The notes: generated by a model from the letters alone, not told the origin. A stretch of DNA of 64,000 nt from a virus (IMGVR_UViG_3300046786_000272:14062-78061); one strand, 5' to 3'; shown: positions 8,388 through 26,088, counted from the first letter of the stretch. A program made the numbers and translations.

Positions 8388-8388
8388 C

Positions 8389-9053: not shown

Positions 9054-9066
9054 AGGAATTAATAAA

Positions 9067-9273
9067 ATGGCAAAACCTACTTTTCAACCTAATCCCCGCG
9101 TCCGTCAGATTTTTGAAGACCTAGAAAAATATCTAGAATTCTGTCAGGATTTCGGTTACAAGTTTGATGAATCCACGATGTATGACATGCGTAGTTTTGC
9201 ATATCGTCAGCATCAAAAGAACTTGGCAGGTAAGCCTGCTAAGGACATGTGGCAGGAAGCAATTATCCGATGA
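9067..9273 (+). CDS. hypothetical protein (68 aa)
   Basis: ATG at 9067 preceded by AAGGA. The listed ORF 8920..9273 extends upstream without an RBS and overlaps the previous gene. Confidence 0.45.
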   Translation: MAKPTFQPNPRVRQIFEDLEKYLEFCQDFGYKFDESTMYDMRSFAYRQHQKNLAGKPAKDMWQEAIIR

Positions 9274-10031
9274 AGATAGTTGTAGTCACTGGTGGATTTG
9301 ATCCACTACACAGCGGTCACATTGAATACTTCAAGGCTGCTAAACAACTCGGTGATAAACTAATCGTTGGGTTGAACAGTGACGAATGGCTGACTCGTAA
9401 GAAGGGTCAGCCTTTCATGCCTATGGAAGAACGACTAGCTATCATAAGTCATCTAGCAATGGTAGACGGTACCGTTAAATTTAACGATGACGATAATTCT
9501 AGTATAGATGCAATTCATAAAACAAGAACATCATTTCCAGACGCAGAAATTATCTTTGCGAATGGTGGTGATAGAACATCATATAATATACCCGAAATGT
9601 CAGAGAAAGATGTTGTCTTTAAGTTTGGTGTAGGCGGTGAGAACAAAATGAATAGTAGTTCTTGGATATTACGTGAATGGAAACAACCAAAAACATTGCG
9701 TGACTGGGGATACTATCGTATACTACATGATGTGCCCGGCTGTAAAGTAAAAGAATTAACAGTAGAGCCAGGTAAGAGTTTAAGTATGCAAAAACATTTT
9801 AAACGTCATGAATTTTGGCATGTTACTGAAGGTAAATGTATACTTGATATGAAATTACCCAGTGGATATAGTTTGCCACCTATGGATCTTGTAACACACA
9901 GTCAAGTACAAATTCCACAGGGTGATTGGCATAGACTAAGTAATCCATATAGTACACCATGTCGTATCGTAGAGATACAATATGGTGATGAATGTATTGA
10001 AGAAGACATAGAAAGAAAAAATAATGCGTAG
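9270..10031 (+). CDS. Bifunctional sugar-phosphate nucleotidyltransferase (RfaE-domain-II / HldE-C cytidylyl/adenylyl-transferase-like) fused to a PMI-type cupin domain
   Basis: IVVVTGGFDPLHSGHIEYF (HxGH nucleotidyltransferase motif, RfaE-II-like); C-terminal WGYYRIL...VKELTVEPGKSLSMQKHFKRHEFWHVTEG is cupin-like as in ManC / type II PMI. Confidence 0.65.
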   Translation: MKIVVVTGGFDPLHSGHIEYFKAAKQLGDKLIVGLNSDEWLTRKKGQPFMPMEERLAIISHLAMVDGTVKFNDDDNSSIDAIHKTRTSFPDAEIIFANGGDRTSYNIPEMSEKDVVFKFGVGGENKMNSSSWILREWKQPKTLRDWGYYRILHDVPGCKVKELTVEPGKSLSMQKHFKRHEFWHVTEGKCILDMKLPSGYSLPPMDLVTHSQVQIPQGDWHRLSNPYSTPCRIVEIQYGDECIEEDIERKNNA

Positions 10032-11211
10032 ACTTATTTACATGGGACTAGAGCCCTATAAAGCACGATACACATTGCAACTACAGCAGTGGAATACACG
10101 TGTATTTGAAAAACGCAAAATTACATACGTAGTCGTTCCGGGTGAAACACTTGATGATGAAGAAGCTATTGTTACTGGTCAAGTACTAGATGCACATGGT
10201 CGTAGTTATTTTGCCATGAGCCAGATGATGAATCTTGTTATGTGGATGAAGCAAGGTAAAATCAATAATGAAGACGTTATCTATTTTGAAGACATGTTTC
10301 AACCGGGCTTTGAGAGCTTGCCTTATATTCTTAATCAAGTCCCTGCATCGCATCGTCCGAAGATTTATGTTAGGTGTTTGGCGCAGTCAATTGATCCTGA
10401 CGATTTTGTTCACGTTTGGGGGATGTCCAAATGGATGGGACTCTATGAACAGATGGTTTGTGAGGCCGTACTACAATCTGGCGGTGCAGTTCTTGCGACT
10501 AACGAAGAAATGGTCATCAACATGAAGATTGCAGGTTGGACAGCACCGATCTACAATATCAGTGGTTTAGCATTTGGCATGGATGAAGTACGTGAACGTG
10601 TAAATCATCAACTTAAACCATTTGAAGAACGAGCTATGCGTGTTGTATTCTCAGCACGTTGGGATCAAGAGAAACAACCAGACTTCTATATGGATCTGAT
10701 TGAAGAATGGCATGAGCGTTATGGCAACAACGTTGAGTTCTGTGTTTGCTCAGGTAGTAAATTAAAAAGCAATAATGATAGCTATATGGCTCGTACCCGT
10801 GACTTAGTAAGTCGTGGTTTATTGACATTGCATGAGGATTTGAATAAGAATGATTACTACAATATTGTTAATAATAGTCGTGTTGTCTTTAATTGTGCTT
10901 TACAAGACTGGGTTTCGAACACCGTTAGCGAAGCCGATGCTCTTGGTTGTAATGTTCTCTATCCTGCTTATCGTAGCTTCCCTGAGACATTCGCCAACGA
11001 TGCATCTAGACTTTACGTTCCTTGGTCTATAGATGACGCTATTAACAAACTACATCCATTATTGAGAGACCCTCATTATAATCAAGGTGCTATCGCAAAA
11101 CATAACGATGGTACCATAGACAGAATTTGTGACATCCTTGAAGGTAAGGGTGAACAATATTTGCGAATGTCAACTGACTATCGCAAGCATACACGTGAAG
11201 CAAAATATTAA
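10024..11211 (+). CDS. putative GT-B-fold glycosyltransferase; weak resemblance to T4 DNA alpha/beta-glucosyltransferases
   Basis: N-terminus MRRLIYMGLEPYKARYT resembles T4 AGT/BGT starts; size and sugar-metabolism context fit; similarity is weak. Confidence 0.35.
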   Translation: MRRLIYMGLEPYKARYTLQLQQWNTRVFEKRKITYVVVPGETLDDEEAIVTGQVLDAHGRSYFAMSQMMNLVMWMKQGKINNEDVIYFEDMFQPGFESLPYILNQVPASHRPKIYVRCLAQSIDPDDFVHVWGMSKWMGLYEQMVCEAVLQSGGAVLATNEEMVINMKIAGWTAPIYNISGLAFGMDEVRERVNHQLKPFEERAMRVVFSARWDQEKQPDFYMDLIEEWHERYGNNVEFCVCSGSKLKSNNDSYMARTRDLVSRGLLTLHEDLNKNDYYNIVNNSRVVFNCALQDWVSNTVSEADALGCNVLYPAYRSFPETFANDASRLYVPWSIDDAINKLHPLLRDPHYNQGAIAKHNDGTIDRICDILEGKGEQYLRMSTDYRKHTREAKY

Positions 11212-11221
11212 GGAGAAAATT

Positions 11222-11416
11222 ATGAGCGCACAAAATGATATTGAAACAAGCTTGGCAGCATACAATGCTGAAAATGAAAAGTTTAACAAAGGCAATGCGG
11301 CAGCAGGTACACGTGCCCGTAAGGCCCTTGCTGAACTAGCTAAAGCAGTTAAGGCTCGCCGTAATGAAATTACAGCAGAAAAAGCCGCACGTGCAGAAGC
11401 AAAAGCTAAGGCTTAA
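11222..11416 (+). CDS. small Ala/Lys-rich histone-like DNA-binding protein (64 aa)
   Basis: GGAGAAAATT RBS then ATG; KALAELAKAVKARRNEITAEKAARAEAKAKA; GC-rich codons. Confidence 0.55.
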   Translation: MSAQNDIETSLAAYNAENEKFNKGNAAAGTRARKALAELAKAVKARRNEITAEKAARAEAKAKA

Positions 11417-11418
11417 TT

Positions 11419-11712
11419 ATGGCACTGACTCCAGCAAATGACCGTATCTTGGTCAAGCCGCAGGAAGTAAAGACTAGAACTGAGTCAGGGTTTTATATCC
11501 CTGACTCGGCTCAAGAGAAACTACCGCGTGGTACAGTATTCAAGGTAGGCAAAGGTCGCAGACTAGACGACGGTACTTTCGCTACACCTGAAGTAAAAGA
11601 GGGCGATGTAGTCATCTACACTGAATCAGGTCCTCAAAAGATTACGGTGGGAAATCAAGACTACATTGTAATGAAAGAAGAAGATATTCTTTGTATAGTA
11701 GACGAAGAATGA
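11419..11712 (+). CDS. groES: Co-chaperonin GroES (Cpn10)
   Basis: DRILVKPQEV...GKGRRLDDG...VKEGDVVIY...ILCIVDE aligns to GroES along its length. Confidence 0.85.
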   Translation: MALTPANDRILVKPQEVKTRTESGFYIPDSAQEKLPRGTVFKVGKGRRLDDGTFATPEVKEGDVVIYTESGPQKITVGNQDYIVMKEEDILCIVDEE

Positions 11713-11779
11713 TAAATAGTTGTGAGACACAACGGTCTCACAATGTCAAAACAAAAACCATCACAAAGGAAGGTTATCT

Positions 11780-12460
11780 ATGAGTTATAATAAAACAAAA
11801 ACAGATCCAGCATTGGGTCAACGAGTGCATGAGCACTTAGTCAAAATGGGAGTCGAAACCCCTACATTTCAAACATCAATGGATCGTAAAGATAAGATAG
11901 CAGAGATTGAAAAGTCTTTCAGTCATATCATGCAAGTCTTGGGACTTGATTTAGAAGATGATAGTCTTATGGAAACACCCAAGCGTGTTGCTAAGATGTA
12001 TGTCAATGAAATCTTTTGGGGTCTAGATTATGAAGCTTTTCCAAAGTGTACAACCGTTGATAATAAGATGCAGTATAATGAAATGGTCGTGGAACGTAAT
12101 GTTAACGTCCAAAGTAACTGTGAACATCACTTTGTCGTTATTGACGGCCTCGCTACTGTGGCATATGTTCCTAAGCAAAGAGTCCTCGGACTATCTAAAA
12201 TCAATCGAATCGTGGAATACTTTTCTAAGCGACCACAGATTCAAGAGCGTCTTACTGAACAAATCTTTCACACCCTACAGTTCATCCTTGATACAGAAGA
12301 CGTTGCAGTTATGATTGACGCACAACACTATTGCGTTAAGAGTCGAGGTGTAGAAGATACAGGTAGTTCAACTGTTACTTGTCGCTTAGGTGGTGGTTTC
12401 AAAACTGACCCTGCGGCACGACAAGAGTTCTTGCAGATTGCAAACAAGGGTTGCAAATGA
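11780..12460 (+). CDS. folE: GTP cyclohydrolase I
   Basis: NCEHHFVVIDG (CEHH zinc motif), 226 aa, FolE-like throughout. Confidence 0.85.
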   Translation: MSYNKTKTDPALGQRVHEHLVKMGVETPTFQTSMDRKDKIAEIEKSFSHIMQVLGLDLEDDSLMETPKRVAKMYVNEIFWGLDYEAFPKCTTVDNKMQYNEMVVERNVNVQSNCEHHFVVIDGLATVAYVPKQRVLGLSKINRIVEYFSKRPQIQERLTEQIFHTLQFILDTEDVAVMIDAQHYCVKSRGVEDTGSSTVTCRLGGGFKTDPAARQEFLQIANKGCK

Positions 12461-12894
12461 GTGAAATTATTGAAGATACTATCAGTAGAAATAAAAAATT
12501 TCAAGAAGAAAGAACTCGCAGATTAAAAAGAATGCGAGAACTTAAAGCACCTGATATCATAATTCAAACTGAAGAAATGATATCAAAAATGACTATAGCG
12601 GAATATAACATCTTCTGTCAGCAAGCCGATCAAGAAGATAAAAAAATTAAAGCAGAATACGCTAAAAATAATCCCATTCAAAAACATATAGTTGATGAAA
12701 TTTATGATAGGGAAAGCAAACTCTCTTATACTTTCCTTACTTACTCATCTACTGTACAGTGGACGATGGCGATTAATCCTTTGAGTTTTATGAGTGCAGA
12801 TGATTACTATAATGATTTGTATCAAACTTTTTTAGACCATGCCCAAGAACTTTATCAAAAGAGATTCAAAGAACAATGGGAAGCTGACCAATGA
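12451..12894 (+). CDS. hypothetical protein (147 aa)
   Basis: ORF in series with neighbours. Confidence 0.5.
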   Translation: MQMSEIIEDTISRNKKFQEERTRRLKRMRELKAPDIIIQTEEMISKMTIAEYNIFCQQADQEDKKIKAEYAKNNPIQKHIVDEIYDRESKLSYTFLTYSSTVQWTMAINPLSFMSADDYYNDLYQTFLDHAQELYQKRFKEQWEADQ

Positions 12895-12957
12895 ACTTAC
12901 TAATTTTATTAATCGTAGTTGCAGTCGCTGTAACAATCATTCGTAGATTGCCAAAGA

Positions 12958-13257
12958 GTGATTGTACAGGTGATTGCAATCAAGGACGTAACTGTGACTG
13001 CAAAAATAAACAGTCTTAATATGACTCCTGAAGAGGCCCAAGCTTTCATTAGAAAGATAATGGGACCTCCCAAACGAGTATTAGAAGGTACCGAACGTGA
13101 GCACATGCTAACTGTGTTGCGTTTGGTTGAACCTATTAGGTCAACGAATAATCAACGTTCATTCACTGATGAATATGTACATGCTGGAAAGATGTATGAT
13201 GTTCATTACTTTGAAGGTGAAACTGTAGTGGAGGAATATTTAGATGAGGAATCTTAA
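12958..13257 (+). CDS. hypothetical protein (99 aa)
   Basis: ORF. Confidence 0.45.
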   Translation: MIVQVIAIKDVTVTAKINSLNMTPEEAQAFIRKIMGPPKRVLEGTEREHMLTVLRLVEPIRSTNNQRSFTDEYVHAGKMYDVHYFEGETVVEEYLDEES

Positions 13258-13435
13258 ATTAATTGATGCAGTGGTAGCATTGCATGAAATAAAGAGATTA
13301 GTGGAAGAAGAATGTGGTATCTGTAGAGTAAGTATAGAGATAGAACGATGTGCTAACCAACTACATGAAATGTCATTGCAAGATGCAAAGAATAGTATAA
13401 TTGCAGGACAAGTTATTCAGAAAGCTAAAGAATGA
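13244..13435 (+). CDS. hypothetical protein (63 aa)
   Basis: ORF overlapping its neighbours by a few nt. Confidence 0.4.
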   Translation: MRNLKLIDAVVALHEIKRLVEEECGICRVSIEIERCANQLHEMSLQDAKNSIIAGQVIQKAKE

Positions 13436-13902
13436 TTTTCAATCATGTTAAAAAACTTAAACAAGAAGGCAAGAGAATTGGCATCACGTTTAGTACGTTC
13501 GATATGTTACATGCGGGACATATTGCTATGCTTAGTGAAGCGAAGAATCACTGCGATTATCTTATTGCAGGACTTCAAACAGACCCTACAATCGACCGTC
13601 CAGACACTAAAAATAAACCTATTCAAAGTATTGTGGAACGTCAAATCCAACTGGCTGCGTGTCGTTACGTTGACGAAGTGGTTGTGTATAGTACAGAGCA
13701 GGACCTCGCTGATCTCTTACTCATACTTCCGGTGGATGTCAGAATCCTTGGTGTTGAATATGCCGATACAGAGTTCTCGGGTAAAAGTGAGTGCGAACTC
13801 AGATCCATCAGTCTTGTCTTTAATGGTAGAGATCACTCCTTTAGCTCCAGTAGCCTACGTAAACGTGTCTATGATAGTGAAACCAAAAAGCGAGGACAAT
13901 AA
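13432..13902 (+). CDS. Cytidylyltransferase-family nucleotidyltransferase (RfaE-II/TagD-like)
   Basis: GITFSTFDMLHAGHIAMLSEAK HxGH motif; 156 aa. Confidence 0.7.
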   Translation: MIFNHVKKLKQEGKRIGITFSTFDMLHAGHIAMLSEAKNHCDYLIAGLQTDPTIDRPDTKNKPIQSIVERQIQLAACRYVDEVVVYSTEQDLADLLLILPVDVRILGVEYADTEFSGKSECELRSISLVFNGRDHSFSSSSLRKRVYDSETKKRGQ

Positions 13903-14204
13903 TGAGTAATTTTTACAATTCGTTCATGAGTAAATACCGTGTCAAACATGTGCAGGTAGTTCGTGACCGCAATTTTGAGACTATCAATTACAGTTACAAT
14001 CAATCTGCTAGTTATTACGCTGATCGTGAAGAACTTATTGAAATGGAACTCACACGTAGTGGATTTGAAGATTTGGTCAAGATGGATCGTGAGTATGACA
14101 ACATATGGCAAGACCAGCGTGATGAAGCATACTTGCGTAGAACGTACCCTGCAGTAGCAGAAGCATATAGTAAATATCGTATGATGTTAGAACTGTACAA
14201 ATAA
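13902..14204 (+). CDS. hypothetical protein (100 aa)
   Basis: ATGA overlap. Confidence 0.5.
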   Translation: MSNFYNSFMSKYRVKHVQVVRDRNFETINYSYNQSASYYADREELIEMELTRSGFEDLVKMDREYDNIWQDQRDEAYLRRTYPAVAEAYSKYRMMLELYK

Positions 14205-14213
14205 AAAGAAGAT

Positions 14214-15236
14214 ATGCTAAAAAAGAACGTATACATATTATATCCTGCAGGATACTACGGAACATATGTTAATTGGGCAATAAACATTTCGGATTCTGAT
14301 AGGGCTAAAGAAACAGTACTTGATCCTATCAATAGAGAGAAAAGTGATGAGTATGGTGGGGTAGGTACTAGCCACTTACATACAAAGATTCCAACTCATC
14401 AGGGACCAATGAGTCACTTTATGTGGGTAATGTATAACAAGCCAGTTGATACTAGGATATATAATATCAATATGGGCGCAGATACTTTGCCCCCTCTAGA
14501 AAAGACAATCTCAATATTATTAAACTCTGACCCCGACCCAACAATCATTGTTATCCATGACAACAGTGAAATGGACATGATAAATTTCGGGACCATCAAT
14601 GCTATAACAAAATGGCCTACTCAGTTTGCTATTAGGGCAATATACGAGCTATTTGGTCCTGATAAGAAATTGTATAAGTTTGATCCATTCAACTGTGCTG
14701 ATGATATAAATTTTAGAAACTTAATAGTTGAGCACCACTCTATACTGACTAGAAGGAACAATCCGATCAATCACGCAACGTTGAAGAACTTTGTCAATAT
14801 GGAAGACTCTTGGTACAGAATAAGAAATAAACTTCAACCGCATGAGATAAACGAAGAAACTTACATAAATCCACAAACATATGTTATGGATGACAAGTAT
14901 AAGTCAAACATTTTTGAACTATCTTGCTTAAATGTAGTCACACCACAATTTCCAGACATTCTTGAAAATATATTAAATTTATCTAAACTCAGTGATTCTT
15001 ATGATACAAGTCAGGTAAGAACTATACACCAATCTTTCATTGACTCACAACCCAATCTCAAGTGGTTTGATTCTATAAACAATTGGAGAGAAACAGGAGT
15101 TTTGGATAAATATCTACTTTCCCATTCATGCATACAGGGCATGGTTCTTAAAGAATTACTAGAAAAGAATGCCAATTTAAAAGATACTATAGATTGGAAA
15201 ACAATGTCTTTAGAAGATATTAACCAATTTTGGTAA
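14214..15236 (+). CDS. hypothetical protein (340 aa), AT-rich gene
   Basis: Long ORF; lower GC than the flanking genes. Confidence 0.55.
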   Translation: MLKKNVYILYPAGYYGTYVNWAINISDSDRAKETVLDPINREKSDEYGGVGTSHLHTKIPTHQGPMSHFMWVMYNKPVDTRIYNINMGADTLPPLEKTISILLNSDPDPTIIVIHDNSEMDMINFGTINAITKWPTQFAIRAIYELFGPDKKLYKFDPFNCADDINFRNLIVEHHSILTRRNNPINHATLKNFVNMEDSWYRIRNKLQPHEINEETYINPQTYVMDDKYKSNIFELSCLNVVTPQFPDILENILNLSKLSDSYDTSQVRTIHQSFIDSQPNLKWFDSINNWRETGVLDKYLLSHSCIQGMVLKELLEKNANLKDTIDWKTMSLEDINQFW

Positions 15237-15313
15237 ATACAATAGCGGCCTTGGCTTCATCCCGCTTTACAAACTCTGCCAGCCTATGCTATAATTAACA
15301 TAGGAGAAAAAGC

Positions 15314-15817
15314 ATGTCATTACAACCAGTCAGTTATAAATTTACAAGTACTAAAGAGTACCACGATTCATTCCCTTGCGCTTATCGCCAATGGAGAGCA
15401 GATAGTCACTGCAATATGATTCACGGTTACAGTTTCAGTATGAAGTTCTATTTTGGTACAAACGACCTAGATGTTCGCAATTGGGCGGCAGACTATGGTG
15501 GACTAAAAGAATTGAAAAAGATTCTTGAGGATCAATTTGACCACACATTACTAGTCGCACAAGACGATCCCGAACTTGAAACATTCAAGATGCTACAAGA
15601 AAAGAAATTAGCTAAACTAACTATTCTTCCACGAATCGGTTGCGAGAGTTTAGCAGACATGCTTTACAAGTATGTCAATGGCGTTTACATCCCTGACATG
15701 TGGGGTCAAGGTGAAGCAGAACGTCTATGGTGTTATCGTGTAGAAGTACGTGAGACACAAAGCAACATGGCTTTCCGTGAAGGTCATCGTGAATGGAATG
15801 AGGATTTGCTTGCGTGA
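15314..15817 (+). CDS. queD: 6-carboxy-5,6,7,8-tetrahydropterin synthase (QueD / PTPS family)
   Basis: HCNMIHGYSF resembles the QueD CxxxHGH zinc motif; PTPS-like length and context with FolE/QueE. Confidence 0.65.
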   Translation: MSLQPVSYKFTSTKEYHDSFPCAYRQWRADSHCNMIHGYSFSMKFYFGTNDLDVRNWAADYGGLKELKKILEDQFDHTLLVAQDDPELETFKMLQEKKLAKLTILPRIGCESLADMLYKYVNGVYIPDMWGQGEAERLWCYRVEVRETQSNMAFREGHREWNEDLLA

Positions 15818-16578
15818 ATGATGTTAAGCAATTAACAATAGCAGGTTCATCTATACTTATTCCCTGGACATCTCAATACAAAGAACTGCTTTTCTTTCAA
15901 GCAGTTCCTAGAGATAATAGAACGATAGACGATATAGATGAAGATGCTAGAATAGCTAAACTAAAACGTAGATTCGAATACACATTGAATCCTCTATTAG
16001 AAACTTTAGCAAAACTTCCAGTAGGTGCTACTATACTGGACATAGGCGCCGGCAACAGTTTAATAGACGTAATCATTAATGCAAAGTTTCTAGATAAAAA
16101 ATTTAAATTTATTTTAGTAGACGAAGATAATACATATCCACCAAAGGATCCTAGTAATGAATTCTACAAAAATGATTATACGACATATAATGATTGGTTC
16201 TTTATTGAGAAATTAGTAGAAGTCAATAATATGGATATCAACTCATTTACAAAAAAATTACCTGAAGCTGATTGGTCCGATACCCCAGTTGATTTAGTAA
16301 TTTCATCAGCATCATGGGGATGGCATTATCCAATTGATACCTATTTAAATAAAACACATACTGTATTGAAAGACAGTGGTTATTTGTATATCAGTGAGGT
16401 ACTCAACGTTGATGACTCACTTGAAAAACTATCTAATATATTTAAACCGATTAATGTGACTATGAGTAAGTTTTCACCTACCCAATCACTAATCGAAAAC
16501 AAGAGAGTTCTAGTTTTTGTAGTTGCTAATAAGATGGATGTTCGTAAATTTGCATTTATATTCTTAGGACAAAAATAA
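15814..16578 (+). CDS. Class I SAM-dependent methyltransferase-fold protein
   Basis: ILDIGAGNSLIDVI motif I (GxGxG) about 70 aa from the N-terminus; ATGA overlap with queD. Confidence 0.5.
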   Translation: MNDVKQLTIAGSSILIPWTSQYKELLFFQAVPRDNRTIDDIDEDARIAKLKRRFEYTLNPLLETLAKLPVGATILDIGAGNSLIDVIINAKFLDKKFKFILVDEDNTYPPKDPSNEFYKNDYTTYNDWFFIEKLVEVNNMDINSFTKKLPEADWSDTPVDLVISSASWGWHYPIDTYLNKTHTVLKDSGYLYISEVLNVDDSLEKLSNIFKPINVTMSKFSPTQSLIENKRVLVFVVANKMDVRKFAFIFLGQK

Positions 16579-16580
16579 CT

Positions 16581-17663
16581 GTGCAGTTTGTACTAAAATC
16601 AGAAAGTGACTATAAAAGACCAGAGTCGTATTTAAAAGACTTTGGATGTTTTAGAATATCACGTTACTTGGAAATTCATACTAACGGGGACGTAAGTATA
16701 TGCTGTCATTCTTGGTTACCTGAATTTTGCGGTAATATACTCACTGATACAGTTGAAGATATTCTTAATAATTCTAATAGGCTGTCTATGATAAAAGACA
16801 TGGACAGTGGAGAATTCACTAATTGCAATGACCATTGTCCGTTTATTAGTGCTATGCTTTCTGGTAAACAAGAATCAGTTAATTTCATAGTACCACTACG
16901 TGCATTACCCTTTCACAAGAAGAACAAGCCGCTAGTGATTAACTTTAGTTATGACCAGTCGTGTAACTTACAATGCCCTAGCTGTAGAAATTCTTTAATA
17001 CTTCATAAAGTAGGAGAGAATAACTTGTTAGTTAGAGTTCATGCAGGGGTAGAAAAACTAGTTGATTATCTATTATCACAGGGTGAAAATCTTGTTTTGA
17101 ATATTACTGGCAGCGGTGATGCTTTTGCTAGCCCCACATATTGGCAGTATTTAAAAACACTATCAACTAAAAATATAGGAGCTAATCTCCAAATCAAATT
17201 GATGACTAACGGTATCTTAATGACTGAAGCACGATGGAATGATATAAAGCCGTTATGGAATAATATTACTCACATAGGGGTAAGCATTGATGCGTTTACT
17301 AATGAAACTTACTCAAAGATAAGAGTCAATGGATCTAAAGCTACACTAGATAAAAATTTAAAAATTCTCAATGAACTCATTAAGAATAAAAGCTTTACAA
17401 GATTAACAGGTTGGCAAACTAACTATACTGTGCAAAAAGATAACTACAAAGAGCTTATAGATTATGTTAATTGGCAACTGTCATATGACCAACTGTCAAC
17501 TATATTTTTTAACTGTATAGATCAATGGGGTCATTTGAATGACATGACATTCAACCAATTAAATATAAATCAAGAAGACAAACTACTATTAAAAGAAATA
17601 TTATCTAACGACATTTTTAATAATAAAAAAGTAATGTTAGGGAACCTAAACTCATTTAGATAA
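16581..17663 (+). CDS. Radical SAM enzyme with atypical N-terminal Cys-rich extension
   Basis: CNLQCPSC (CxxxCxxC) near residue 128; additional N-terminal cysteines (ICCHSW..FCGN..CNDHCPF); GTG start. Confidence 0.55.
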   Translation: MQFVLKSESDYKRPESYLKDFGCFRISRYLEIHTNGDVSICCHSWLPEFCGNILTDTVEDILNNSNRLSMIKDMDSGEFTNCNDHCPFISAMLSGKQESVNFIVPLRALPFHKKNKPLVINFSYDQSCNLQCPSCRNSLILHKVGENNLLVRVHAGVEKLVDYLLSQGENLVLNITGSGDAFASPTYWQYLKTLSTKNIGANLQIKLMTNGILMTEARWNDIKPLWNNITHIGVSIDAFTNETYSKIRVNGSKATLDKNLKILNELIKNKSFTRLTGWQTNYTVQKDNYKELIDYVNWQLSYDQLSTIFFNCIDQWGHLNDMTFNQLNINQEDKLLLKEILSNDIFNNKKVMLGNLNSFR

Positions 17664-17671
17664 GGCATATT

Positions 17672-18847
17672 ATGAACAAAACAACAAAAAATGTAGCAGT
17701 GATCGGTGCAGGCATCACTGGCATCACCACAGCATATTATCTTGCTAAACAAGGTTATCAAGTAACTGTCTACGAACAAGAACCACATGCGGCAATGCGT
17801 ACTAGCTTTGCTAATGGTGGTCAAGTATCAGTAAGCAACAGTGAAGTTTGGACTACATGGAGCAACGTCAAGAAGGGCATTAAGTGGCTCTTTAAGAAAG
17901 ATGCCCCATTACTGATTCGTCCTCGCTTAGACTTTAAGCAATGGAAGTGGATCGCTAAGTTCTTGTATAACACTGCTACCAATCAGTATGAAAAGAATAC
18001 TAGCGAAACAATCAAGATGGGTCTGGAGTCTAGTAAATTGTACAAAGAAATTATGTACACTGAGAAACTAAGTTTTGACCAATCACCATCGGGTATTCTT
18101 CACTTCTATAAAGATGAACAATACTTTGAGGCTGCGAAACAAGCACAATATATCTATCGTAAGAATGGTTGTGAGTGGGATATTGTTGATACCCAACGAG
18201 TTAAAGAACTAGACAGTACACTAGAGAACGTTGAAGGTATTGTCGGTGGTGCTTGGACATTGAGTGATTGGACAGGTGACATTCACAAGTTTTGTATTGA
18301 ACTTGAAAAAGTATTAGTAAAAAAATACGGTGTAGTGTTTAACTATAATTGGAAGATCAATCATATTGAAGAAGTTTCATTCTATGATGCTGTAGTGATT
18401 TCGAATGGTGTAGGTAGCACTCAATTAGCAAAGACGGTAGGAGATAGTATTGATGTTTATCCCGTAAAAGGATACAGCATCACTATCAATAATGTAGATA
18501 AGAAACATCTACCTGTAGTCAGTCTGTTAGATGACCAAGCTAAGATTGTTACAAGTAGTTTGGGTAATCGTTTTCGTGTTGCGGGTACTGCTGAACTAGC
18601 GGGTGAGAACTATGATATTCGTCATGACCGTATCAAACCATTACTTGATTGGGTAAGAACTAACTTCCCAAACATGAGCACACATGATTATACTAGCTGG
18701 GCATGTCTCAGACCAATGACTCCTAATATGATGCCTATTACCAAAAGAAGTGACAAGAACAGTAAAGTATATTATAATACAGGACACGGGCACTTAGGCT
18801 GGACCTTAGCACCATATACAGCAAAACTTATTTCGGAACAAGTATGA
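17672..18847 (+). CDS. FAD-dependent oxidoreductase (DAO / glycine-D-amino-acid oxidase family)
   Basis: VAVIGAGITGITTAYYLAKQGYQVTVYE dinucleotide-binding fold; 391 aa. Confidence 0.75.
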   Translation: MNKTTKNVAVIGAGITGITTAYYLAKQGYQVTVYEQEPHAAMRTSFANGGQVSVSNSEVWTTWSNVKKGIKWLFKKDAPLLIRPRLDFKQWKWIAKFLYNTATNQYEKNTSETIKMGLESSKLYKEIMYTEKLSFDQSPSGILHFYKDEQYFEAAKQAQYIYRKNGCEWDIVDTQRVKELDSTLENVEGIVGGAWTLSDWTGDIHKFCIELEKVLVKKYGVVFNYNWKINHIEEVSFYDAVVISNGVGSTQLAKTVGDSIDVYPVKGYSITINNVDKKHLPVVSLLDDQAKIVTSSLGNRFRVAGTAELAGENYDIRHDRIKPLLDWVRTNFPNMSTHDYTSWACLRPMTPNMMPITKRSDKNSKVYYNTGHGHLGWTLAPYTAKLISEQV

Positions 18848-19692
18848 GTCATTTAAAAATATCAGAGTTATTTTACAGCATTCAAGGTGAGGGTAAATTC
18901 ATGGGAGTTCCCTCTGTGTTTTTACGAACATATGGATGTAATTTTACATGCGGTGGATTCGGCATGCCTAAAGGAGAATTGAGTAGTGAGAGAGATGTTA
19001 TTGCGATTAAAGCAGAAGATTATACAGATTATAAATCCTTACCACTTGTCAGTACGGGCTGTGACTCTTATGCATCTTGGGACCCTGCTTTTAAACACCT
19101 TAGTCCTGTTCTCGATACCGATGTTATTGCTGACAGCATTGTTAGTACACTTCCTAGAGGTCGTTGGATGGATGAGCACTTGGTTATCACGGGCGGTGAA
19201 CCTCTTCTTGGATGGCAAAGAGCGTATCCAGACTTACTTTCACATGAAAAAATGAAAAGTCTTAAAGAGATGACGTTTGAAACGAACGGCACTCAGCGCA
19301 TCAGTGAAGAATTTGGTAAATACTTGCATCAATGGCAACGCAACAGAGCAAAAGACGCTATCACATTCAGTGTCAGTCCTAAACTCAGCATTAGTGGTGA
19401 GAAGTGGGAAGAAGCAATCTGTCCTGATATAGTATCTCATTATAAACAATATGGCTTTGTTTACTTGAAGTTTGTTGTTGCAACTAAGGAAGATGTTAAA
19501 GAAGCTGAACAAGCAGTTGACGAATATCGCAAACGAGGTTTTACAGGTCCTGTGTATTTGATGCCGTGCGGTGGTGTTGAGAGTTTGTATAGCTTGAATG
19601 CACGTAATGTAGCAATCGAAGCAATGAATAGAGGATGGCGTTACAGTGATAGATTGCAAGTGCCGTTGTTTAAAAATGAATGGGGAACATGA
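18844..19692 (+). CDS. queE: Radical SAM 7-carboxy-7-deazaguanine synthase (QueE)-like
   Basis: FLRTYGCNFTCGGFG cluster region, QueE-like size, position in the FolE/QueD context; motif is a variant. Confidence 0.55.
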   Translation: MSHLKISELFYSIQGEGKFMGVPSVFLRTYGCNFTCGGFGMPKGELSSERDVIAIKAEDYTDYKSLPLVSTGCDSYASWDPAFKHLSPVLDTDVIADSIVSTLPRGRWMDEHLVITGGEPLLGWQRAYPDLLSHEKMKSLKEMTFETNGTQRISEEFGKYLHQWQRNRAKDAITFSVSPKLSISGEKWEEAICPDIVSHYKQYGFVYLKFVVATKEDVKEAEQAVDEYRKRGFTGPVYLMPCGGVESLYSLNARNVAIEAMNRGWRYSDRLQVPLFKNEWGT

Positions 19693-19871
19693 ACTCATTA
19701 ACAAGAGCATTAGGTGGCTGGTTATTTCATCTATATAGATGTGACGTATGTAAGAAAAGCATGAACATACATGAGGGGTTAGTATTGAATCCTAAAGACA
19801 ATACTAGAGTTATACACAAAGAATGTAGGGGCAAAAATGAAACAAGTAGTAATCACAAGAAATCAGTTTGA
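19689..19871 (+). CDS. hypothetical protein (60 aa) with CxxC..C
   Basis: ATGA overlap with queE stop. Confidence 0.4.
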   Translation: MNSLTRALGGWLFHLYRCDVCKKSMNIHEGLVLNPKDNTRVIHKECRGKNETSSNHKKSV

Positions 19872-20025
19872 GAAACTAAAAGAAGTATTTGAAATGTACG
19901 ACCTTGATAGAGTAATCTTAACCGAAGACGCTAGTAAGGGTGCTGGTATAGGAGCAACTACAACTATTGAGTTTGACCCTAAGCAGTCTATCAAGATGGA
20001 CATTACAGACGTAGAGAGTTGGTAA
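19837..20025 (+). CDS. hypothetical protein (62 aa)
   Basis: ORF; overlaps the previous one by 35 nt. Confidence 0.4.
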   Translation: MKQVVITRNQFEKLKEVFEMYDLDRVILTEDASKGAGIGATTTIEFDPKQSIKMDITDVESW

Positions 20026-20268
20026 ATGTTATACACTGATAGTGATGTAATGGGTGCTCCGAGAGAAGAAGACTGGGGCCTTAATAAGGTACAGAACTGG
20101 GAATACAAACTGTGTTGGAGACCGCAGACCTGTTTTTTAACAGGAAAGCAATTATGGGCTAAACGAGCGTATCACGGTGTGCGAATTATTAGCGGTCCTG
20201 GTGAACCTGTATACGAAGATTACTGGGTATGCAGAAATGAATTTTTAATTTGGAGATTAACAAAATAA
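20026..20268 (+). CDS. hypothetical protein (80 aa)
   Basis: TGGTAAATG junction. Confidence 0.45.
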   Translation: MLYTDSDVMGAPREEDWGLNKVQNWEYKLCWRPQTCFLTGKQLWAKRAYHGVRIISGPGEPVYEDYWVCRNEFLIWRLTK

Positions 20269-20471
20269 TGGAAACTAAAAAAAGAACTGTAGTTAGAATG
20301 ATAACATATAGACTTACTGCATGGGTATTTACAATTTTTTGGACATACTTGTTTACCGGTAACTTAGGTAATTCAGCGGGCTTTGCGACTGCATTGCATA
20401 TATTGTTAAGTGTTGACTATTACATTCACGAACGTATCTGGCTCAAGATTAAATGGGGAAAGATAGAGTGA
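20250..20471 (+). CDS. hypothetical small membrane protein
   Basis: Two hydrophobic segments (LTAWVFTIFWTYLFTG..; FATALHILLSV). Confidence 0.45.
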   Translation: MEINKIMETKKRTVVRMITYRLTAWVFTIFWTYLFTGNLGNSAGFATALHILLSVDYYIHERIWLKIKWGKIE

Positions 20472-21796
20472 GAACATACGACAAGCGTATTGGATTCTTA
20501 GTAAGTTATCAGACTCTTATACCGCATGGTGGTATAGGTCAATTTACCAAGAGCTTCTGCGAACTGATGGATCAACACAATATTAAGGTTGATATCATTA
20601 CGGATAAAGAACCACAGGATAGTGACTTTGTAAAATCACTTAAAGCTAATGTTATAGCCCCTCTGGAATCATTACGTTACACAGACCATAGTAATATCTT
20701 TATGTATGGTGATACATTCTGCTATGAACGTATGGCTAACTTCCGTAATGCAATTGTTGAAGCATTAGAACATAATATATATGATGCATTTATCTGCAAC
20801 ACATACGAAACTGTTCAGGTTGCTAGTACAATGGGTCTAGAAGATTGTATTCAGATTATTGCTTATACTCATTTGGAAAGTCAGATATTTAAAGACACGA
20901 AGAACCCCTTCTTATTCAACACCAATGTAATGATGCGTCAGCAATTAAGCACGACAAATATTGATGTAGGCACACAAAGTAAATTCAATCAACTTAACTT
21001 AGACGAATCTTCTTATCATCTCCCTATCCCGATCACAGAGCGAGACTTACTAACTGAGTACAACGGTGACCGTGAAGGCATACTGTTTGTAGGTCGTTGG
21101 GAAGAAGGTAAAAATCCTGAGTTGTTTATTGAGTTGATTGAACAGACTAAATTACCTGCAAAGGTGATGACTAGCCCTAATGGTGTTAAGAAGTTTGAAG
21201 ATAGACTGTCTAAGCTAGGTGTCAAATATGATGTTCGTGCTAGTATCACTGGACAAGAGAAAGTAGACTTTATTAAGTCTAGTAGAATCGCATTCAACCC
21301 TAGTGTAGTTGAAAGTTATGGTATGGCATTCTATGAACAACATATTCAGTTGCCTACACTTGTACTAGAAAAACAGCGATGGACTAATAACTTCAATAGT
21401 GATTTCTTTTATACATGTACTAAGAAAGACATGGCTGAGAGAGCTAAACAATTGTATGATAGTTTTGAAAAAGCAGAAACATACTATAACTTGGGAGCAC
21501 TAAAGCATTTCAATACCATGGAGAATCATGTATTTCACAAATGGAATGATTGCTTTCATGCATTTGAGCCTAGAACTTCTAATAGTAACACTGCTAAAAT
21601 TTGTAATGAAACTACAGTAAAATTGCAAGATTACATCACTGCTTTAGGTCGTAAGATTATTTGTATTGACGATATTCGTAGTGTTTTGACAAATAAACAT
21701 AAGTTCAGAATTATCTACACAGATGAAGATACATACTTGACAAAAGATCCGTCATTTGAACCAAACGAACAAGAAGAAAGTTTATTCTCATGGTAA
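20453..21796 (+). CDS. Glycosyltransferase, GT4-like (GT-B fold)
   Basis: GILFVGRWEEGKN and ESYGMAFYEQ (E-x7-E motif). Confidence 0.55.
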   Translation: MGKDRVRTYDKRIGFLVSYQTLIPHGGIGQFTKSFCELMDQHNIKVDIITDKEPQDSDFVKSLKANVIAPLESLRYTDHSNIFMYGDTFCYERMANFRNAIVEALEHNIYDAFICNTYETVQVASTMGLEDCIQIIAYTHLESQIFKDTKNPFLFNTNVMMRQQLSTTNIDVGTQSKFNQLNLDESSYHLPIPITERDLLTEYNGDREGILFVGRWEEGKNPELFIELIEQTKLPAKVMTSPNGVKKFEDRLSKLGVKYDVRASITGQEKVDFIKSSRIAFNPSVVESYGMAFYEQHIQLPTLVLEKQRWTNNFNSDFFYTCTKKDMAERAKQLYDSFEKAETYYNLGALKHFNTMENHVFHKWNDCFHAFEPRTSNSNTAKICNETTVKLQDYITALGRKIICIDDIRSVLTNKHKFRIIYTDEDTYLTKDPSFEPNEQEESLFSW

Positions 21797-22632
21797 AAAA
21801 AGTTTTAATTACAGGTAGCTCAGGCTACATCGGTAGTCATCTTGCTAAGATGCTAATGGATAAAACATTAGAGTATGAAGTACATGGGCTGGATGTTAAT
21901 GAACCCCAACAAACAATGCATAGATTTTATCGTCAAGATATCAATAGATTGTTTACGATTGACGAAGAATTTGATGCAGTCATACATTTAGCCGCATTAG
22001 TTCGTGTAGGTGAAAGTGAGCAAATACCTATCAAGTACTATATCACTAACTTGAATGGCACGATGAATGTAGTTAACAAGATAAAGACAAAGAACTTTAT
22101 CTTTGCAAGTACAGGTGCCGCACAAGATTGCTCTAGTGCATATGGCATCAGCAAACGTGCGGCAGAAGATGTAGTCAGCGAGTTCTGCACACACCATAGA
22201 CCTACACCATATACTATCTTTCGTTTTTATAACGTAATCGGCAGTGATGGTTTTGATCCTACTAATCCAGATGGACTGATGTGGAACTTAATGAAAGCAC
22301 AAGAGACAGGGAAATTTACTATTTTTGGTAACGACTATGATGTATCTCCTGACGGAACTTGTGTGCGTGATTATGTGCATGTGAATGAAATATGTGACTC
22401 ATTAATACAAGCAATTGAAAAACCTAGCAATAGTGTAGAATGTTTAGGACACGGTGTTGGGTACACAGTTAGCGAGATTGTCAATTTATTTCAGAAAGTC
22501 AATGACGTTGACTTTGATGTAGTATACGGCCCAAGAAGAAAGGGTGACTTATCTAGCTCAGTGCTAGAAGATGTGTCACCCTATATGAAGAACATGTATA
22601 CTATGGAAGAATTACTCAGACTTCCCGTATAA
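21790..22632 (+). CDS. NAD-dependent epimerase/dehydratase (SDR family)
   Basis: VLITGSSGYIGSHL Rossmann motif; YGISK (YxxxK) catalytic dyad. Confidence 0.8.
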   Translation: MVKKVLITGSSGYIGSHLAKMLMDKTLEYEVHGLDVNEPQQTMHRFYRQDINRLFTIDEEFDAVIHLAALVRVGESEQIPIKYYITNLNGTMNVVNKIKTKNFIFASTGAAQDCSSAYGISKRAAEDVVSEFCTHHRPTPYTIFRFYNVIGSDGFDPTNPDGLMWNLMKAQETGKFTIFGNDYDVSPDGTCVRDYVHVNEICDSLIQAIEKPSNSVECLGHGVGYTVSEIVNLFQKVNDVDFDVVYGPRRKGDLSSSVLEDVSPYMKNMYTMEELLRLPV

Positions 22633-23421
22633 CTCAAATGCAGTGATAGATTCTTTATCACCGATCTTTTCTAATACGTAATTAAATCCTTGTGGATGTT
22701 TTGCAATGATATCTTTCTTTGCTTTACATCCACTAAGTATTTTTGACTTGAATATAGGAGCAGAACCATCGGTGCATCTTACTGATAACGCTAGTCTATT
22801 CGCATCACCATCTTGCGTCTTATGGATAATATCACCCCTCATTAAAAGCAAGTCGCCTGCACGTAATTCAGGACTTGTAGCAATATCGTCTAAGTCACCT
22901 CGTATCACATAAGTGATACCTTTATCATCATTGGTTACACGAGTATCTGAACCTAGCTTGTGATACGTTGATGCACCACCGCCTATTATTGCGTTAGCAT
23001 ATATCTTTAACTTGTCACGAACGGTATCTAACGATATTAAACTTATACCAGAAGTCAACGGATCATCTTTTTCTACTATGATATAGAAATTTAGATAATT
23101 GATATGTTGTTGCAAGATATAAAATGATTCATGATCTTGGTGCCACCCTGGTCTCATATATTGATTACTGAAATAAACAGCCTCTGGTGTAATCAAATCA
23201 ACATGTAAACTAGTCTGCTCATTGATAGCATCTAACACTTCATTGATTTTCTCTTGTAGTGATATCATTACCCCAGGTGATGCTAGGTGTGTTTTTTGAT
23301 TTTTATTATCACTTTCTTCACTGTTATGGTAATCTGATGCGATGAAACTAGCATCAGCATCAGATATCCAATTGGGGATTACTGCGAATCCTTTAGTATC
23401 AAAATCAGAAAAATCTAACAT
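22612..23421 (-). CDS. Phytanoyl-CoA dioxygenase (PhyH)-like Fe(II)/2-oxoglutarate oxygenase
   Basis: PGWHQDHESF (HxD facial-triad-like); 269 aa; convergent 21-nt tail overlap with the epimerase. Confidence 0.45.
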   Translation of the reverse strand: MLDFSDFDTKGFAVIPNWISDADASFIASDYHNSEESDNKNQKTHLASPGVMISLQEKINEVLDAINEQTSLHVDLITPEAVYFSNQYMRPGWHQDHESFYILQQHINYLNFYIIVEKDDPLTSGISLISLDTVRDKLKIYANAIIGGGASTYHKLGSDTRVTNDDKGITYVIRGDLDDIATSPELRAGDLLLMRGDIIHKTQDGDANRLALSVRCTDGSAPIFKSKILSGCKAKKDIIAKHPQGFNYVLEKIGDKESITAFELYGKSE

Positions 23422-26059: not shown

Positions 26060-26088
26060 TTGACTTTATTGCGTAGGTATGCTACACT
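26060..26088 (+). promoter_or_regulatory. sigma70-like promoter TTGACT-17-TACACT
   Basis: TTGACT 26060-65, TACACT 26083-88, upstream of the uvdE-like gene. Confidence 0.45.

Follow-up and report, generated by a model that had tools for sequence, protein, structure and literature searches.

Modification of DNA with 7-deazaguanines is a major route by which phages evade restriction. To our knowledge, eight 7-deazaguanine derivatives of DNA are known, none of which is glycosylated, and no glycosylated purine analogue has been described earlier in any DNA. Glycosyltransferases that decorate a 7-deazaguanine in a nucleic acid are found in eukaryotes, where mannosyl- and galactosyl-queuosine are formed in tRNA, the acceptor being the cyclopentenediol of queuosine. 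The DNA of Cellulophaga phage phiST, which encodes DpdA and DpdL, contains 100% dDG; no dDG was obtained in E. coli from the DpdL and DpdA of phiST or of phage ACP17, and according to the authors other enzymes may be needed (PMC10516641). The DNA of PA5oct is resistant at G-containing restriction sites, the chemistry not having been identified (PMC12191111). The huimycin cluster combines FolE, QueD, QueE and QueC with a methyltransferase and a glycosyltransferase proposed to transfer GlcNAc directly onto a 7-deazapurine (PMC7439116).

The window analysed here, a 64-kb stretch (64,000 nucleotides) from an environmental jumbo phage, carries genes for exchanging guanine for 7-deazaguanine in DNA. 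From 5718 to 22632 the genes lie on one strand and are packed, with junctions that are mostly overlaps or gaps of 0–13 nt, and with four gaps of 63–77 nt. The ORF coordinates of the original prediction all held, as did its view that glycosyl-transfer capability sits inside a DNA base-modification island. The genes of the deazaguanine pathway, with the small ORFs among them and the glycosyltransferase (GT) at issue, are:

6810..8387, + strand: DpdA/TGT-like DNA-guanine transglycosylase, long form, 525 aa (profile comparison and TGT motifs)
8389..8601, + strand: conserved 70-aa ORF between the DpdA-like gene and DpdL (63% identical to the same-position ORF in the relative L002)
8598..9053, + strand: DpdL, QueD-like T-fold, proposed 7-carboxy-7-deazaguanine decarboxylase (similarity to phiST DpdL, signature motif)
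9067..9273, + strand: conserved 68-aa ORF between DpdL and the nucleotidyltransferase-cupin gene (L002 has an ORF of 68 aa in the corresponding position, with 79% identity)
10024..11211, + strand: GT4-like GT-B glycosyltransferase, core partner of DpdL (GT-B fold, conserved motifs, linkage)
11780..12460, + strand: FolE, GTP cyclohydrolase I, first step toward 7-deazaguanine (Pfam GTP_cyclohydroI, E 1.4e-61)
15314..15817, + strand: QueD, 6-carboxytetrahydropterin synthase (Pfam PTPS, E 1.1e-16; NCBIfam QueD weak)
18844..19692, + strand: QueE, 7-carboxy-7-deazaguanine synthase, radical SAM (PHROG 2076 'QueE-like radical SAM', E 7e-53)

Five NCBIfam QueE models also match the QueE ORF, every one under its own cut-off. 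The ORF at 6810 is, from profile comparison and motifs, assigned to the DpdA/TGT superfamily: its profile (A2) aligned to E. coli Tgt in hhalign with 92% probability (E 6e-7, all motifs aligned), and the TGT motifs occur in order (DSGGFQ, substrate-binding LD/FDE, QG, LG.G and FDC..P). Its structure model is of low confidence, and the fold comparison with TIM-barrel TGT/DpdA rests on that model. The DpdL ORF is 35% identical (E 1e-10) to CGPG_00067 of phiST, the DpdL described by Cui et al. 2023 (PMC10516641), and the family signature LxxxHRHxF, which replaces CxxxHGH, is seen as LGTPHRHIF, with H60, H62 and F64 invariant across 12 lineages. Its product is proposed to be a putative decarboxylase giving 7-deazaguanine, an activity that is unproven in the defining paper too (PMC10516641). 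The 70-aa ORF has no family match, and the 68-aa ORF overlaps the downstream nucleotidyltransferase-cupin gene by 4 nt.

Following the established pathway, FolE, QueD and QueE would convert GTP to 7-carboxy-7-deazaguanine (CDG), and since no QueC was found among the roughly 50 ORFs scanned in the window, whose sole PP-loop protein (497–1090) is a TilS N-domain, the pathway would stop short of preQ0. DpdL, a CDG decarboxylase by proposal in the literature, and the adjacent GT at 10024 would process the deazapurine, the latter moving a sugar onto it from a nucleotide-activated donor, and the DpdA/TGT-like enzyme would put the modified base into phage DNA in place of guanine. We give about an even chance to the segment being a 7-deazaguanine DNA-modification module of the DpdA/DpdL type that includes a glycosyltransferase of its own. 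The identities of the genes, their genomic linkage, the fold and the catalytic motifs are shown by the analysis; transfer of a sugar onto a deazaguanine, its timing relative to insertion and what the accessory genes do are inferred. The tight pairing of DpdL and GT, together with the acidity of the GT family (pI 5.4–6.2), makes us lean slightly towards joining of the sugar to the free base before insertion, as opposed to the base in DNA. That acidity, unlike many DNA-binding enzymes, also counts against a DNA-glycosylating module, as does the expected DpdL product, plain 7-deazaguanine, which has no obvious C7 hydroxyl or amine for a sugar; this would leave N2, O6, the CDG carboxyl or a carbon as the acceptor.

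The protein at 10024 had been predicted to be a GT-B-fold protein with weak T4 DNA glucosyltransferase-like features, of which the fold stands: it has two Rossmann-like domains in GT-B topology and a C-terminal EX7E motif with basic donor-diphosphate residues. Across the family alignment this motif reads E-x7-E in PA5oct, ACP17, BUDD, Phosso and BCSR5, the window clade having D295-x7-E303, and R212, E216, K217 and E303 are invariant, with donor-binding or catalytic roles that may be assigned by analogy. Membership of the T4 AGT/BGT type was rejected, as the protein has no sequence similarity to T4 glucosyltransferases and no specific structural similarity either, ordinary GT4 enzymes matching its structure better. 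It falls under the Pfam gathering thresholds (Glycos_transf_1, 21.8 against 25 bits; Glyco_trans_1_2, 17 against 26.4), has no match in NCBIfam or PHROG or by PDB sequence search, and belongs to a divergent clade that has an EPxxxRYT signature of its own at the N-terminus. Between clades the GT is better conserved than the DNA polymerase (76% against 58% for L004; 61–75% against 58–63% for clade B).

In a search started from DpdL, the GT was present in 22/22 clade-A and 17/20 clade-B loci. Starting from a GT alignment, DpdL was found within 3.6 kb of the GT in 49 of 57 diverse loci, and seven of the eight loci without a nearby DpdL end at a contig edge. A single diverse locus, along with three from clade B, lacks one of the two partners, which counts against the proposed module. 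DpdA, long or of the ACP17 type, was detected in 37 of the 57, and all six cultured lineages carrying the GT have a DpdA-like gene. The block of GT, DpdL, DpdA and QueE recurs in unrelated phage families (PA5oct, ACP17, BUDD, Phosso and BCSR5), in several of which the module lies within the DNA replication block beside PolB; in BCSR5 a weak match to a PIG-L/LmbE-type deacetylase lies close by. The Kyanoviridae phage BUCT-ZZ01 has a single gene string of QueE, PRTase, QueD, FolE, a GT4-like gene, DpdA, DpdL and GT. The original prediction left the acceptor as DNA or a protein; this near-obligate linkage to DpdL, DpdA and QueE in unrelated phages means that the acceptor of the GT is best read as nucleic-acid-related, although not by the hmC/hmU route then envisaged. 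The DpdL lineages without a GT (phiST, D479, Ahp1, Bakedbeans and RHph_I1_18) all have DpdA of type DpdA3, whereas those with a GT have other types, which fits a different inserted base.

The same adjacency could also mean that the GT is an enzyme missing from the dDG pathway, with no sugar kept in DNA and plain 7-deazaguanine as the final base, as in phiST. A transient glycosyl or ribosyl CDG intermediate would then be decarboxylated by DpdL, or the GT would be a non-catalytic or base-flipping partner of DpdA, and the nucleotidyltransferases, the epimerase and the GT4-like paralog would have some other role. In ACP17 the GT is located between the DpdL and DpdA genes, and it was without this intervening GT that the pair made no dDG in E. 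coli; the phosphoribosyltransferase in the BUCT-ZZ01 operon hints at nucleotide-level intermediates, and the lack of an obvious sugar acceptor on 7-deazaguanine points the same way. However, phiST-type phages make dDG with no GT, conservation of the donor-binding and catalytic motifs is strict, as for a working transferase, and several lineages have acquired additional sugar-related genes (epimerases, a second GT, nucleotidyltransferase-cupins inserted beside the GT and, as a weak match in one lineage, a possible deacetylase), suggesting that a sugar really is consumed. We consider this explanation quite improbable. If the module does include a glycosyltransferase of its own, the genes added in the window clade would most likely provide a particular donor and a second or alternative sugar; they are:

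9270..10031 (alternative start 9249), + strand: HxGH nucleotidyltransferase of the cytidylyltransferase family with a fused PMI-type cupin, accessory and clade-specific
13432..13902, + strand: second HxGH nucleotidyltransferase (TagD/RfaE-II-like), clade-specific accessory (CTP_transf_like, E 1.6e-12; HAGH)
20453..21796, + strand: GT4-like paralog of the GT at 10024, 447 aa, accessory second transferase (Pfam Glycos_transf_1, E 3.4e-5, below cut-off)
21790..22632, + strand: GalE-like SDR, accessory donor supply (Pfam Epimerase, E 1.1e-31)

Both nucleotidyltransferases are established as cytidylyltransferase-like family members, the first through CTP_transf_like (E 8.9e-15) with HSGH, followed by a C-terminal MannoseP_isomer cupin (E 2.1e-18). 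The second had been called correctly, and so had the architecture of the first, but the RfaE-II likeness given to the first does not reach equivalog level: against RfaE domain II/HldE heptose-1-P adenylyltransferase (TIGR02199) the two ORFs score 77 and 76 bits where the cut-off is 181.5, and TagD (55 bits for the ORF at 13432, also far under its cut-off) and ethanolamine-P cytidylyltransferase score similarly. The nearest solved structures to the ORF at 9270 are ethanolamine-P and glycerol-3-P cytidylyltransferases. The synthesis of sugar nucleotides that had been predicted is accordingly not established, as the nucleotidyltransferases resemble phospho-alcohol or heptose cytidylyl- and adenylyltransferases. 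The GT4 call at 20453 agrees with homology to the 10024 family by HMM, if not with a Pfam score above cut-off, and the protein is 36% identical to one encoded between FolE and DpdA in BUCT-ZZ01. The SDR epimerase was rightly recognised and is probably an NDP-hexose 4-epimerase, with GSSGYIG and YGISK as the SDR motifs GxxGxxG and YxxxK, GalE for every top match and UDP-glucose 4-epimerases as best PDB matches, though it scores 164 bits against a GalE (TIGR01179) cut-off of 262 and is ~60 aa shorter than GalE.

That these genes form a single coherent module with the core, as had been supposed, is not supported; they are add-ons of the window clade. The nucleotidyltransferase-cupin is present in 14/22 clade-A loci, without exception between DpdL and the GT and with overlapping stop and start codons at its junctions, and in 0 clade-B loci; the 13432 type, rare in clade B, lies after FolE in most loci of clade A. 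The GT4-like paralog follows QueE in all seven clade-A loci with enough sequence, and the GalE-like gene follows it in 7/7, while in clade B a different SDR directly follows the GT in 15 of the 17 loci that have a GT. Near the GT family in the diverse loci, nucleotidyltransferases occur in 0/57, the cupin in 1/57, the paralog in 3/57 and an epimerase in 4/57. Clearly unrelated genes (Hc1, GroES and a DadA-like dehydrogenase) lie in the island too, so position in a single genome supports a link of the accessory genes only weakly. In cyanophage P-TIM68 a close homolog of the nucleotidyltransferase is flanked by PolB and UvsX, and there is no GT in its vicinity.

The acceptor might instead be something other than DNA: a soluble deazapurine or pterin glycoside, formed in the manner of huimycin/dapiramicin or of the cyanobacterial biopterin glucoside made with FolE, PTPS, an SDR and a GT, or else, for the accessory genes at least, a protein or glycan of the virion or the host. 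The clade specificity of the accessory genes agrees with this, as do the huimycin precedent, the acidic GT family and the similar nucleotidyltransferase and epimerase genes of T4-like cyanophages without neighbouring deazaguanine genes. We consider it unlikely, given the DpdA-type genes in the diverse and cultured GT loci, the position of the module by PolB in several families and the experimentally modified G of PA5oct DNA; moreover, 5zer matches no better than 16 other GT4 enzymes.

Two further ORFs had been taken to indicate pyrimidine modification:

22612..23421, − strand: PhyH-like ORF (PhyH E 0.0067, 17 bits against a cut-off of 22; WHxD...H...R by eye)
63005..63526: dCMP deaminase (dCMP_cyt_deam_1, E 4e-22)

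In this T4-like scheme hmC or hmU would be made and then glycosylated, with the oxygenase possibly acting as a base-J-type hydroxylase, and the deaminase, together with an oxygenase-like ORF adjoining the epimerase, would suit it. The deaminase gene is real, but lies 40 kb off and has no bearing on the module. The PhyH-like ORF is convergent as described, but its score is sub-threshold, it occurs in 0/6 relatives with sequence past the epimerase and it has no homolog in cultured phages; base-J-type hydroxylation followed by glucosylation, which would call for a TET/JBP-family oxygenase coupled to the GT, is not supported on these grounds. No dCMP/dUMP (thymidylate-synthase-like) hydroxymethylase was found among the roughly 50 ORFs scanned in the window, and the GT, dissimilar in sequence to its T4 counterparts, is linked to guanine-pathway and not pyrimidine genes. 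The hmC/hmU chemistry is largely refuted by context and is very improbable, the island acting on guanine via 7-deazaguanine.

We tentatively suggest, while regarding it as somewhat doubtful, that guanine in the DNA of these phages is replaced by a sugar-bearing 7-deazaguanine, the GT4-like enzyme having evolved together with DpdL and one particular type of DpdA, with elaboration in the window clade by a second sugar or unusual donor, and that this explains the G modification of PA5oct. If so, the nucleotidyltransferases, isomerase-like cupin, epimerase and second GT would be the means of that elaboration, and a new class of DNA hypermodification is predicted in a very abundant environmental lineage, whose metagenomic sequences number in the thousands. 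DNA of this kind would influence sequencing, restriction mapping, and recognition by type IV restriction, DNA-glycosylase and END-type defences. The GT is also a candidate for the enzyme whose absence blocks reconstitution of the DpdL pathway, and offers a hypothesis for the guanine modification of the therapeutic jumbo phage PA5oct.

Compared with known systems, the GT shares with the T4 alpha- and beta-glucosyltransferases of hmC a GT-B fold, a phage origin and, presumably, transfer from a host or phage NDP-sugar onto a modified base, but its partner pathway makes a purine analogue and not a hydroxymethyl-pyrimidine. The eukaryotic queuosine glycosyltransferases differ in that the window has no queuosine-forming genes (QueA, QueG/H). 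The huimycin/dapiramicin clusters (PMC7439116) resemble the window, by cluster composition only, in a FolE/QueD/QueE core with a GT4-type GT; there the glycosyltransferase HuiG and the methyltransferase HuiC act on a preQ0-derived base, and a SAM methyltransferase adjoins QueD in the window. The huimycin clusters have QueC, lack DpdA/TGT and yield a free metabolite, whereas the window has a DpdA-like gene and its scanned ORFs gave no QueC. The phiST type (PMC10516641) has in common with it FolE, QueD and QueE without QueC, DpdL with LxxxHRHxF, a TGT-superfamily transglycosylase and a site beside the DNA polymerase. However, phiST has a short DpdA3 and no glycosyltransferase, while the window has a long divergent transglycosylase, a GT4-like GT-B near DpdL with only the small ORF and nucleotidyltransferase-cupin between, and additionally a second GT, an epimerase and two nucleotidyltransferases. 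PA5oct (Pseudomonas jumbo phage, Wroclawvirus) has no nucleotidyltransferase-cupin, GT4-like paralog or full-length epimerase nearby, and its GT is only 23% identical to that of the window. PA5oct and other Rak2-like jumbo phages, whose PolB is 44–50% identical to that of the window, share its backbone synteny of PolB, structural protein, DpdA-like gene, GT-B and DpdL, with QueE and RNase H later.

The genes of the island define a guanine pathway rather than the pyrimidine (hmC/hmU) chemistry of the original prediction, and the GT-B glycosyltransferase 10024 very likely works in this deazaguanine pathway. Three enzymes that lead to 7-carboxy-7-deazaguanine (CDG) are encoded, with no QueC found among the window ORFs scanned, where the sole PP-loop protein seen is a TilS N-terminal domain:

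11780, FolE, present
15314, QueD, present
18844, QueE, present
497-1090, + strand, TilS N-terminal PP-loop domain encoded on its own (121 bits, exceeding the cut-off; not QueC)

DpdL (8598, 151 aa), a QueD-like T-fold protein, is 35% identical to CGPG_00067 of phage phiST, the founding DpdL, and has LGTPHRHIF where the signature of the family reads LxxxHRHxF. The DpdA-like protein (6810, 525 aa), a putative long-form DNA-guanine transglycosylase, had no Pfam hit; an hhalign comparison of its family profile with E. coli Tgt gave a probability of 92% (E 6e-7), with the Tgt motifs DSGGFQ, LD-IP, QG, IHxLG and FDCASP in register. Long and ACP17-type DpdA sub-alignments matched each other at a probability of 55% only, which made this Tgt comparison necessary. 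Pfam, NCBIfam and PHROGs gave no usable match for the glycosyltransferase, the DpdA-like protein, DpdL or ORFs 12451-12894 and 14214-15236, and PDB profile searches with the glycosyltransferase and DpdA families returned no matches. This gene set is the one tied to 2'-deoxy-7-deazaguanine (dDG) (Cui et al., PMC10516641), which replaces every G in the DNA of phiST (PMC10516641), and DpdL has been proposed, but not proven, to be a CDG decarboxylase (PMC10516641). In Vibrio phage Bakedbeans (8221-9402), DpdL is fused to an unidentified N-terminal domain, making up the C-terminal portion of a protein of 383-393 aa.

The placing of the glycosyltransferase in this pathway rests on its linkage. In relatives the conserved order is PolB, a 243-aa structural protein, a 125-aa ORF, the DpdA-like gene, a small ORF, DpdL, in some a nucleotidyltransferase-cupin, and the GT-B gene. 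Among 80 IMG/VR loci (L019-L098) fetched through DpdL and scored where at least 4.5 kb lay downstream, the glycosyltransferase was present in 22/22 loci of the window's environmental clade (clade A) and 17/20 of a second environmental clade (clade B). A reverse search with an alignment of the PA5oct, ACP17 and Phosso glycosyltransferases (three lineages) returned 57 diverse IMG/VR loci, 49 of which have DpdL within 3.6 kb of the glycosyltransferase; seven of the other eight end at a contig edge beside it, leaving one true exception. The same block occurs in the unrelated cultured phages BUCT-ZZ01, PA5oct, ACP17, BUDD, Phosso and BCSR5. In the T4-like cyanophage BUCT-ZZ01, whose glycosyltransferase is 62% identical to that of the window, the genes run QueE-PRTase-x-QueD-FolE-GT4like-DpdA(HADSGGLQ)-DpdL-GT, and in PA5oct the order is DpdA-like, glycosyltransferase (23% identity), DpdL (56%) and QueE. 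A PAPS_reduct protein lies beside FolE in BUDD.

Judging from sequence identities, the glycosyltransferase (10024-11211) appears to be under a constraint that is unusually strong for a phage enzyme of this kind, with 76% identity to the window in relative L004, where the DNA polymerase (2923-5637) has 58%. Across clade B the corresponding ranges are 61-75% and 58-63%, and the DpdA-like protein there falls to 44-49%. Between the two clades the DpdA-like protein is 37-49% and QueD 81-88% identical. The family alignment retains R212/K217, predicted to bind the diphosphate, has the EX7E motif as D295-x7-E303 in the window's clade, and shows a family-specific N-terminal signature, EPxxxRYT.

A non-DNA acceptor, whether a soluble glycoside built on a deazapurine or a pterin or, for the accessory genes, a protein or glycan, is disfavored by the location of the glycosyltransferase in the replication block, by the presence of DpdA in 6/6 cultured lineages that bear it and in the majority of the diverse loci, and by restriction data for PA5oct. 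The pterin-glycoside version (FolE, PTPS, SDR and glycosyltransferase) is only a minor alternative, since the glycosyltransferase comes together with QueE and DpdA.

All ORFs listed in the original prediction are present where it placed them, but T4-like hmC/hmU glycosylation, or the hydroxylate-then-glycosylate logic of base J, does not agree with what they encode. The dCMP deaminase is real, yet no dCMP/dUMP hydroxymethylase was found among the scanned ORFs of the window, and the T4 glucosyltransferase-like features ascribed to 10024 do not extend to any specific similarity to the T4 enzymes. The PhyH-like oxygenase (22612) shows a WHxD...H...R pattern but scored 17 bits against a cut-off of 22; it is convergent, is conserved in 0/6 relatives whose sequence continues beyond the SDR, had no homologs in cultured phages, and thus does not belong to the sugar module in which it had been placed.

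In the mechanism that we propose, GTP would be converted to CDG by FolE, QueD and QueE, an established pathway; the deazapurine would then be processed by DpdL and the adjacent glycosyltransferase, which would move a sugar from an NDP-donor, and the DpdA-like enzyme would exchange the product for guanine in DNA. DpdL has been predicted to use the free base as its substrate (PMC10516641), and its pairing with the glycosyltransferase, together with the acidic pI of the latter's family (5.4-6.2 throughout), makes us lean slightly towards glycosylation of the free base. The five DpdL lineages without the glycosyltransferase (phiST, D479, Ahp1, Bakedbeans and RHph_I1_18) all have a short DpdA3-type transglycosylase, whereas lineages with it have a long or ACP17-type DpdA (iterative HMM), a difference that fits the insertion of a bulkier base. 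The main weakness of the predicted glycosylation is that plain 7-deazaguanine is without an obvious sugar acceptor, and we put the DNA base ending up sugar-bearing at somewhat under an even chance.

The glycosyltransferase may instead be needed to make or insert dDG with no sugar left in DNA. DpdL and DpdA of ACP17, expressed without the intervening glycosyltransferase, gave no dDG in E. coli (PMC10516641), as would be expected if this were so, and the phosphoribosyltransferase of BUCT-ZZ01 (15093-15554; Pribosyltran, E 3e-13), between QueE and QueD in the operon that holds DpdA, DpdL and both glycosyltransferases, points the same way in that it suggests a deazapurine branch at the level of nucleotides. 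The failed ACP17 reconstitution also lends the proposed glycosylation indirect support. Against this, phiST makes dDG without this glycosyltransferase, and extra sugar genes recur beside it, which argues that a sugar really is used.

Instead of the single sugar module that had been predicted, we find a glycosyltransferase that very likely belongs to the deazaguanine pathway, with the nucleotidyltransferases, cupin, SDR and GT4-like paralog as accessories. In the 57 diverse loci there were no cytidylyltransferase-type nucleotidyltransferases, one cupin, four SDRs and three GT4-like paralogs. Both HxGH nucleotidyltransferases were borne out (9270 and 13432; CTP_transf_like, E 8.9e-15 with HSGH and 1.6e-12 with HAGH), as was the PMI-type cupin on the first (MannoseP_isomer, E 2.1e-18); the RfaE-II-like label holds for the HxGH family only, RfaE-II and TagD scores being far under their cut-offs, and among solved structures the closest are cytidylyltransferases for ethanolamine-phosphate and glycerol-3-phosphate. 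The nucleotidyltransferase-cupin occurs in 14/22 clade-A loci, always exactly between DpdL and the glycosyltransferase with overlapping stop and start codons, and the second nucleotidyltransferase follows FolE in most. In Prochlorococcus phage P-TIM68 (6986-7447), as in other marine T4-like cyanophages, a protein about 50% identical lies between gp43 PolB and UvsX, with no glycosyltransferase or deazaguanine genes nearby. This nucleotidyltransferase family may have a separate function linked to replication.

The SDR (21790) is GalE-like as predicted (Epimerase, E 1.1e-31; best PDB matches all UDP-glucose 4-epimerases), and 20453 (447 aa), predicted to be a GT4 enzyme, matches Glycos_transf_1 weakly and is a paralog of the 10024 family. 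These two follow QueE in 7/7 clade-A loci with enough sequence, while a different SDR directly follows the glycosyltransferase in 15/17 clade-B loci that bear it, and BUCT-ZZ01 has its GT4-like paralog between FolE and DpdA. Between DpdL and the glycosyltransferase of Burkholderia phage BCSR5 (9399-12147) are encoded a P-loop protein (AAA_28), a PP-loop protein resembling PAPS reductases and a protein that weakly matches PIG-L/LmbE-type deacetylases (a sugar de-N-acetylase family), a further lineage-specific elaboration of this core. In T4 the donor is host UDP-glucose; by analogy, most lineages with the glycosyltransferase probably use a host-derived donor, and the predicted accessory genes suggest that the window's clade probably supplies or diversifies its own.

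Other genes of the island were set aside. The DAO-family gene between QueD and QueE (17672-18847) was weighed as a candidate MnmC-like amine oxidase for the base. It encodes instead a D-amino-acid dehydrogenase of the DadA type, with a nearly full score (456 bits; cut-off 494), is also found in relative L002 but otherwise rare, and resembles an auxiliary metabolic gene that was inserted into the module. The methyltransferase (15814-16578) and ORF 14214-15236 (340 aa, no detectable family) occur in 0/80 related loci and are strain-specific; at the corresponding position L002 encodes a fusion of an APS-kinase-like P-loop protein with a weak nucleotidyltransferase, and accessory genes appear to be exchanged at this site. 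A radical SAM protein (16581-17663), sporadic in relatives (L024, L032), inverts the usual domain order, its SPASM/twitch domain (residues 23-87) coming before the radical SAM core (128-277), and has weak matches to maturases and prokaryotic viperin.

The window has a GC content of about 38%, densely packed phage genes and no tRNAs in its 64 kb. Its family-B DNA polymerase is closest to Rak2-like jumbo phages (44-50% identity; Sinorhizobium phage Phosso, Agrobacterium phage Atu_ph07 and Klebsiella phage RaK2), and a megablast search of 50,697 phage records with the 15-kb island found no nucleotide-level relatives, suggesting a lineage without a cultured close relative. This lineage is very abundant in metagenomes, with at least 7,999 homologs of the glycosyltransferase; the best matches listed are mostly 75-80% identical, on contigs that among them reach 360 kb. 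Close homologs (60-71% identity) on Haliscomenobacter, Phycisphaerae, Rickettsiales and Syntrophomonadaceae MAG contigs are probably mis-binned phage DNA, given their mutually inconsistent taxonomy. The phage has its own chaperone and protease set, comprising GroES, a full-length Hsp70/DnaK (863 bits), ClpX and ClpP, and also encodes an Hc1 histone-like protein and an Fe/Mn superoxide dismutase (ORFs for these functions: 11129-11712, 44340-46184, 50828-52024, 56059-56646 and 23434-23988). Further genes are:

26079-27140, UvdE UV endonuclease
1082-2629, - strand, member of the PhpK-like methyltransferase family (B12-binding radical SAM protein), convergent with and adjoining the TilS N-domain

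The last may form a tRNA or nucleotide modification pair with the TilS N-domain.

While 7-deazaguanine DNA systems and DpdL are already known, no report of a glycosyltransferase as their core partner, or of glycosylated 7-deazaguanine in DNA, was found in the literature searched, and the finding is readily testable as six cultured phages carry the glycosyltransferase. Indirect support for the proposed mechanism also comes from the huimycin cluster, for which glycosylation of the base has been proposed and which joins a deazapurine core pathway to a methyltransferase and a glycosyltransferase (PMC7439116).
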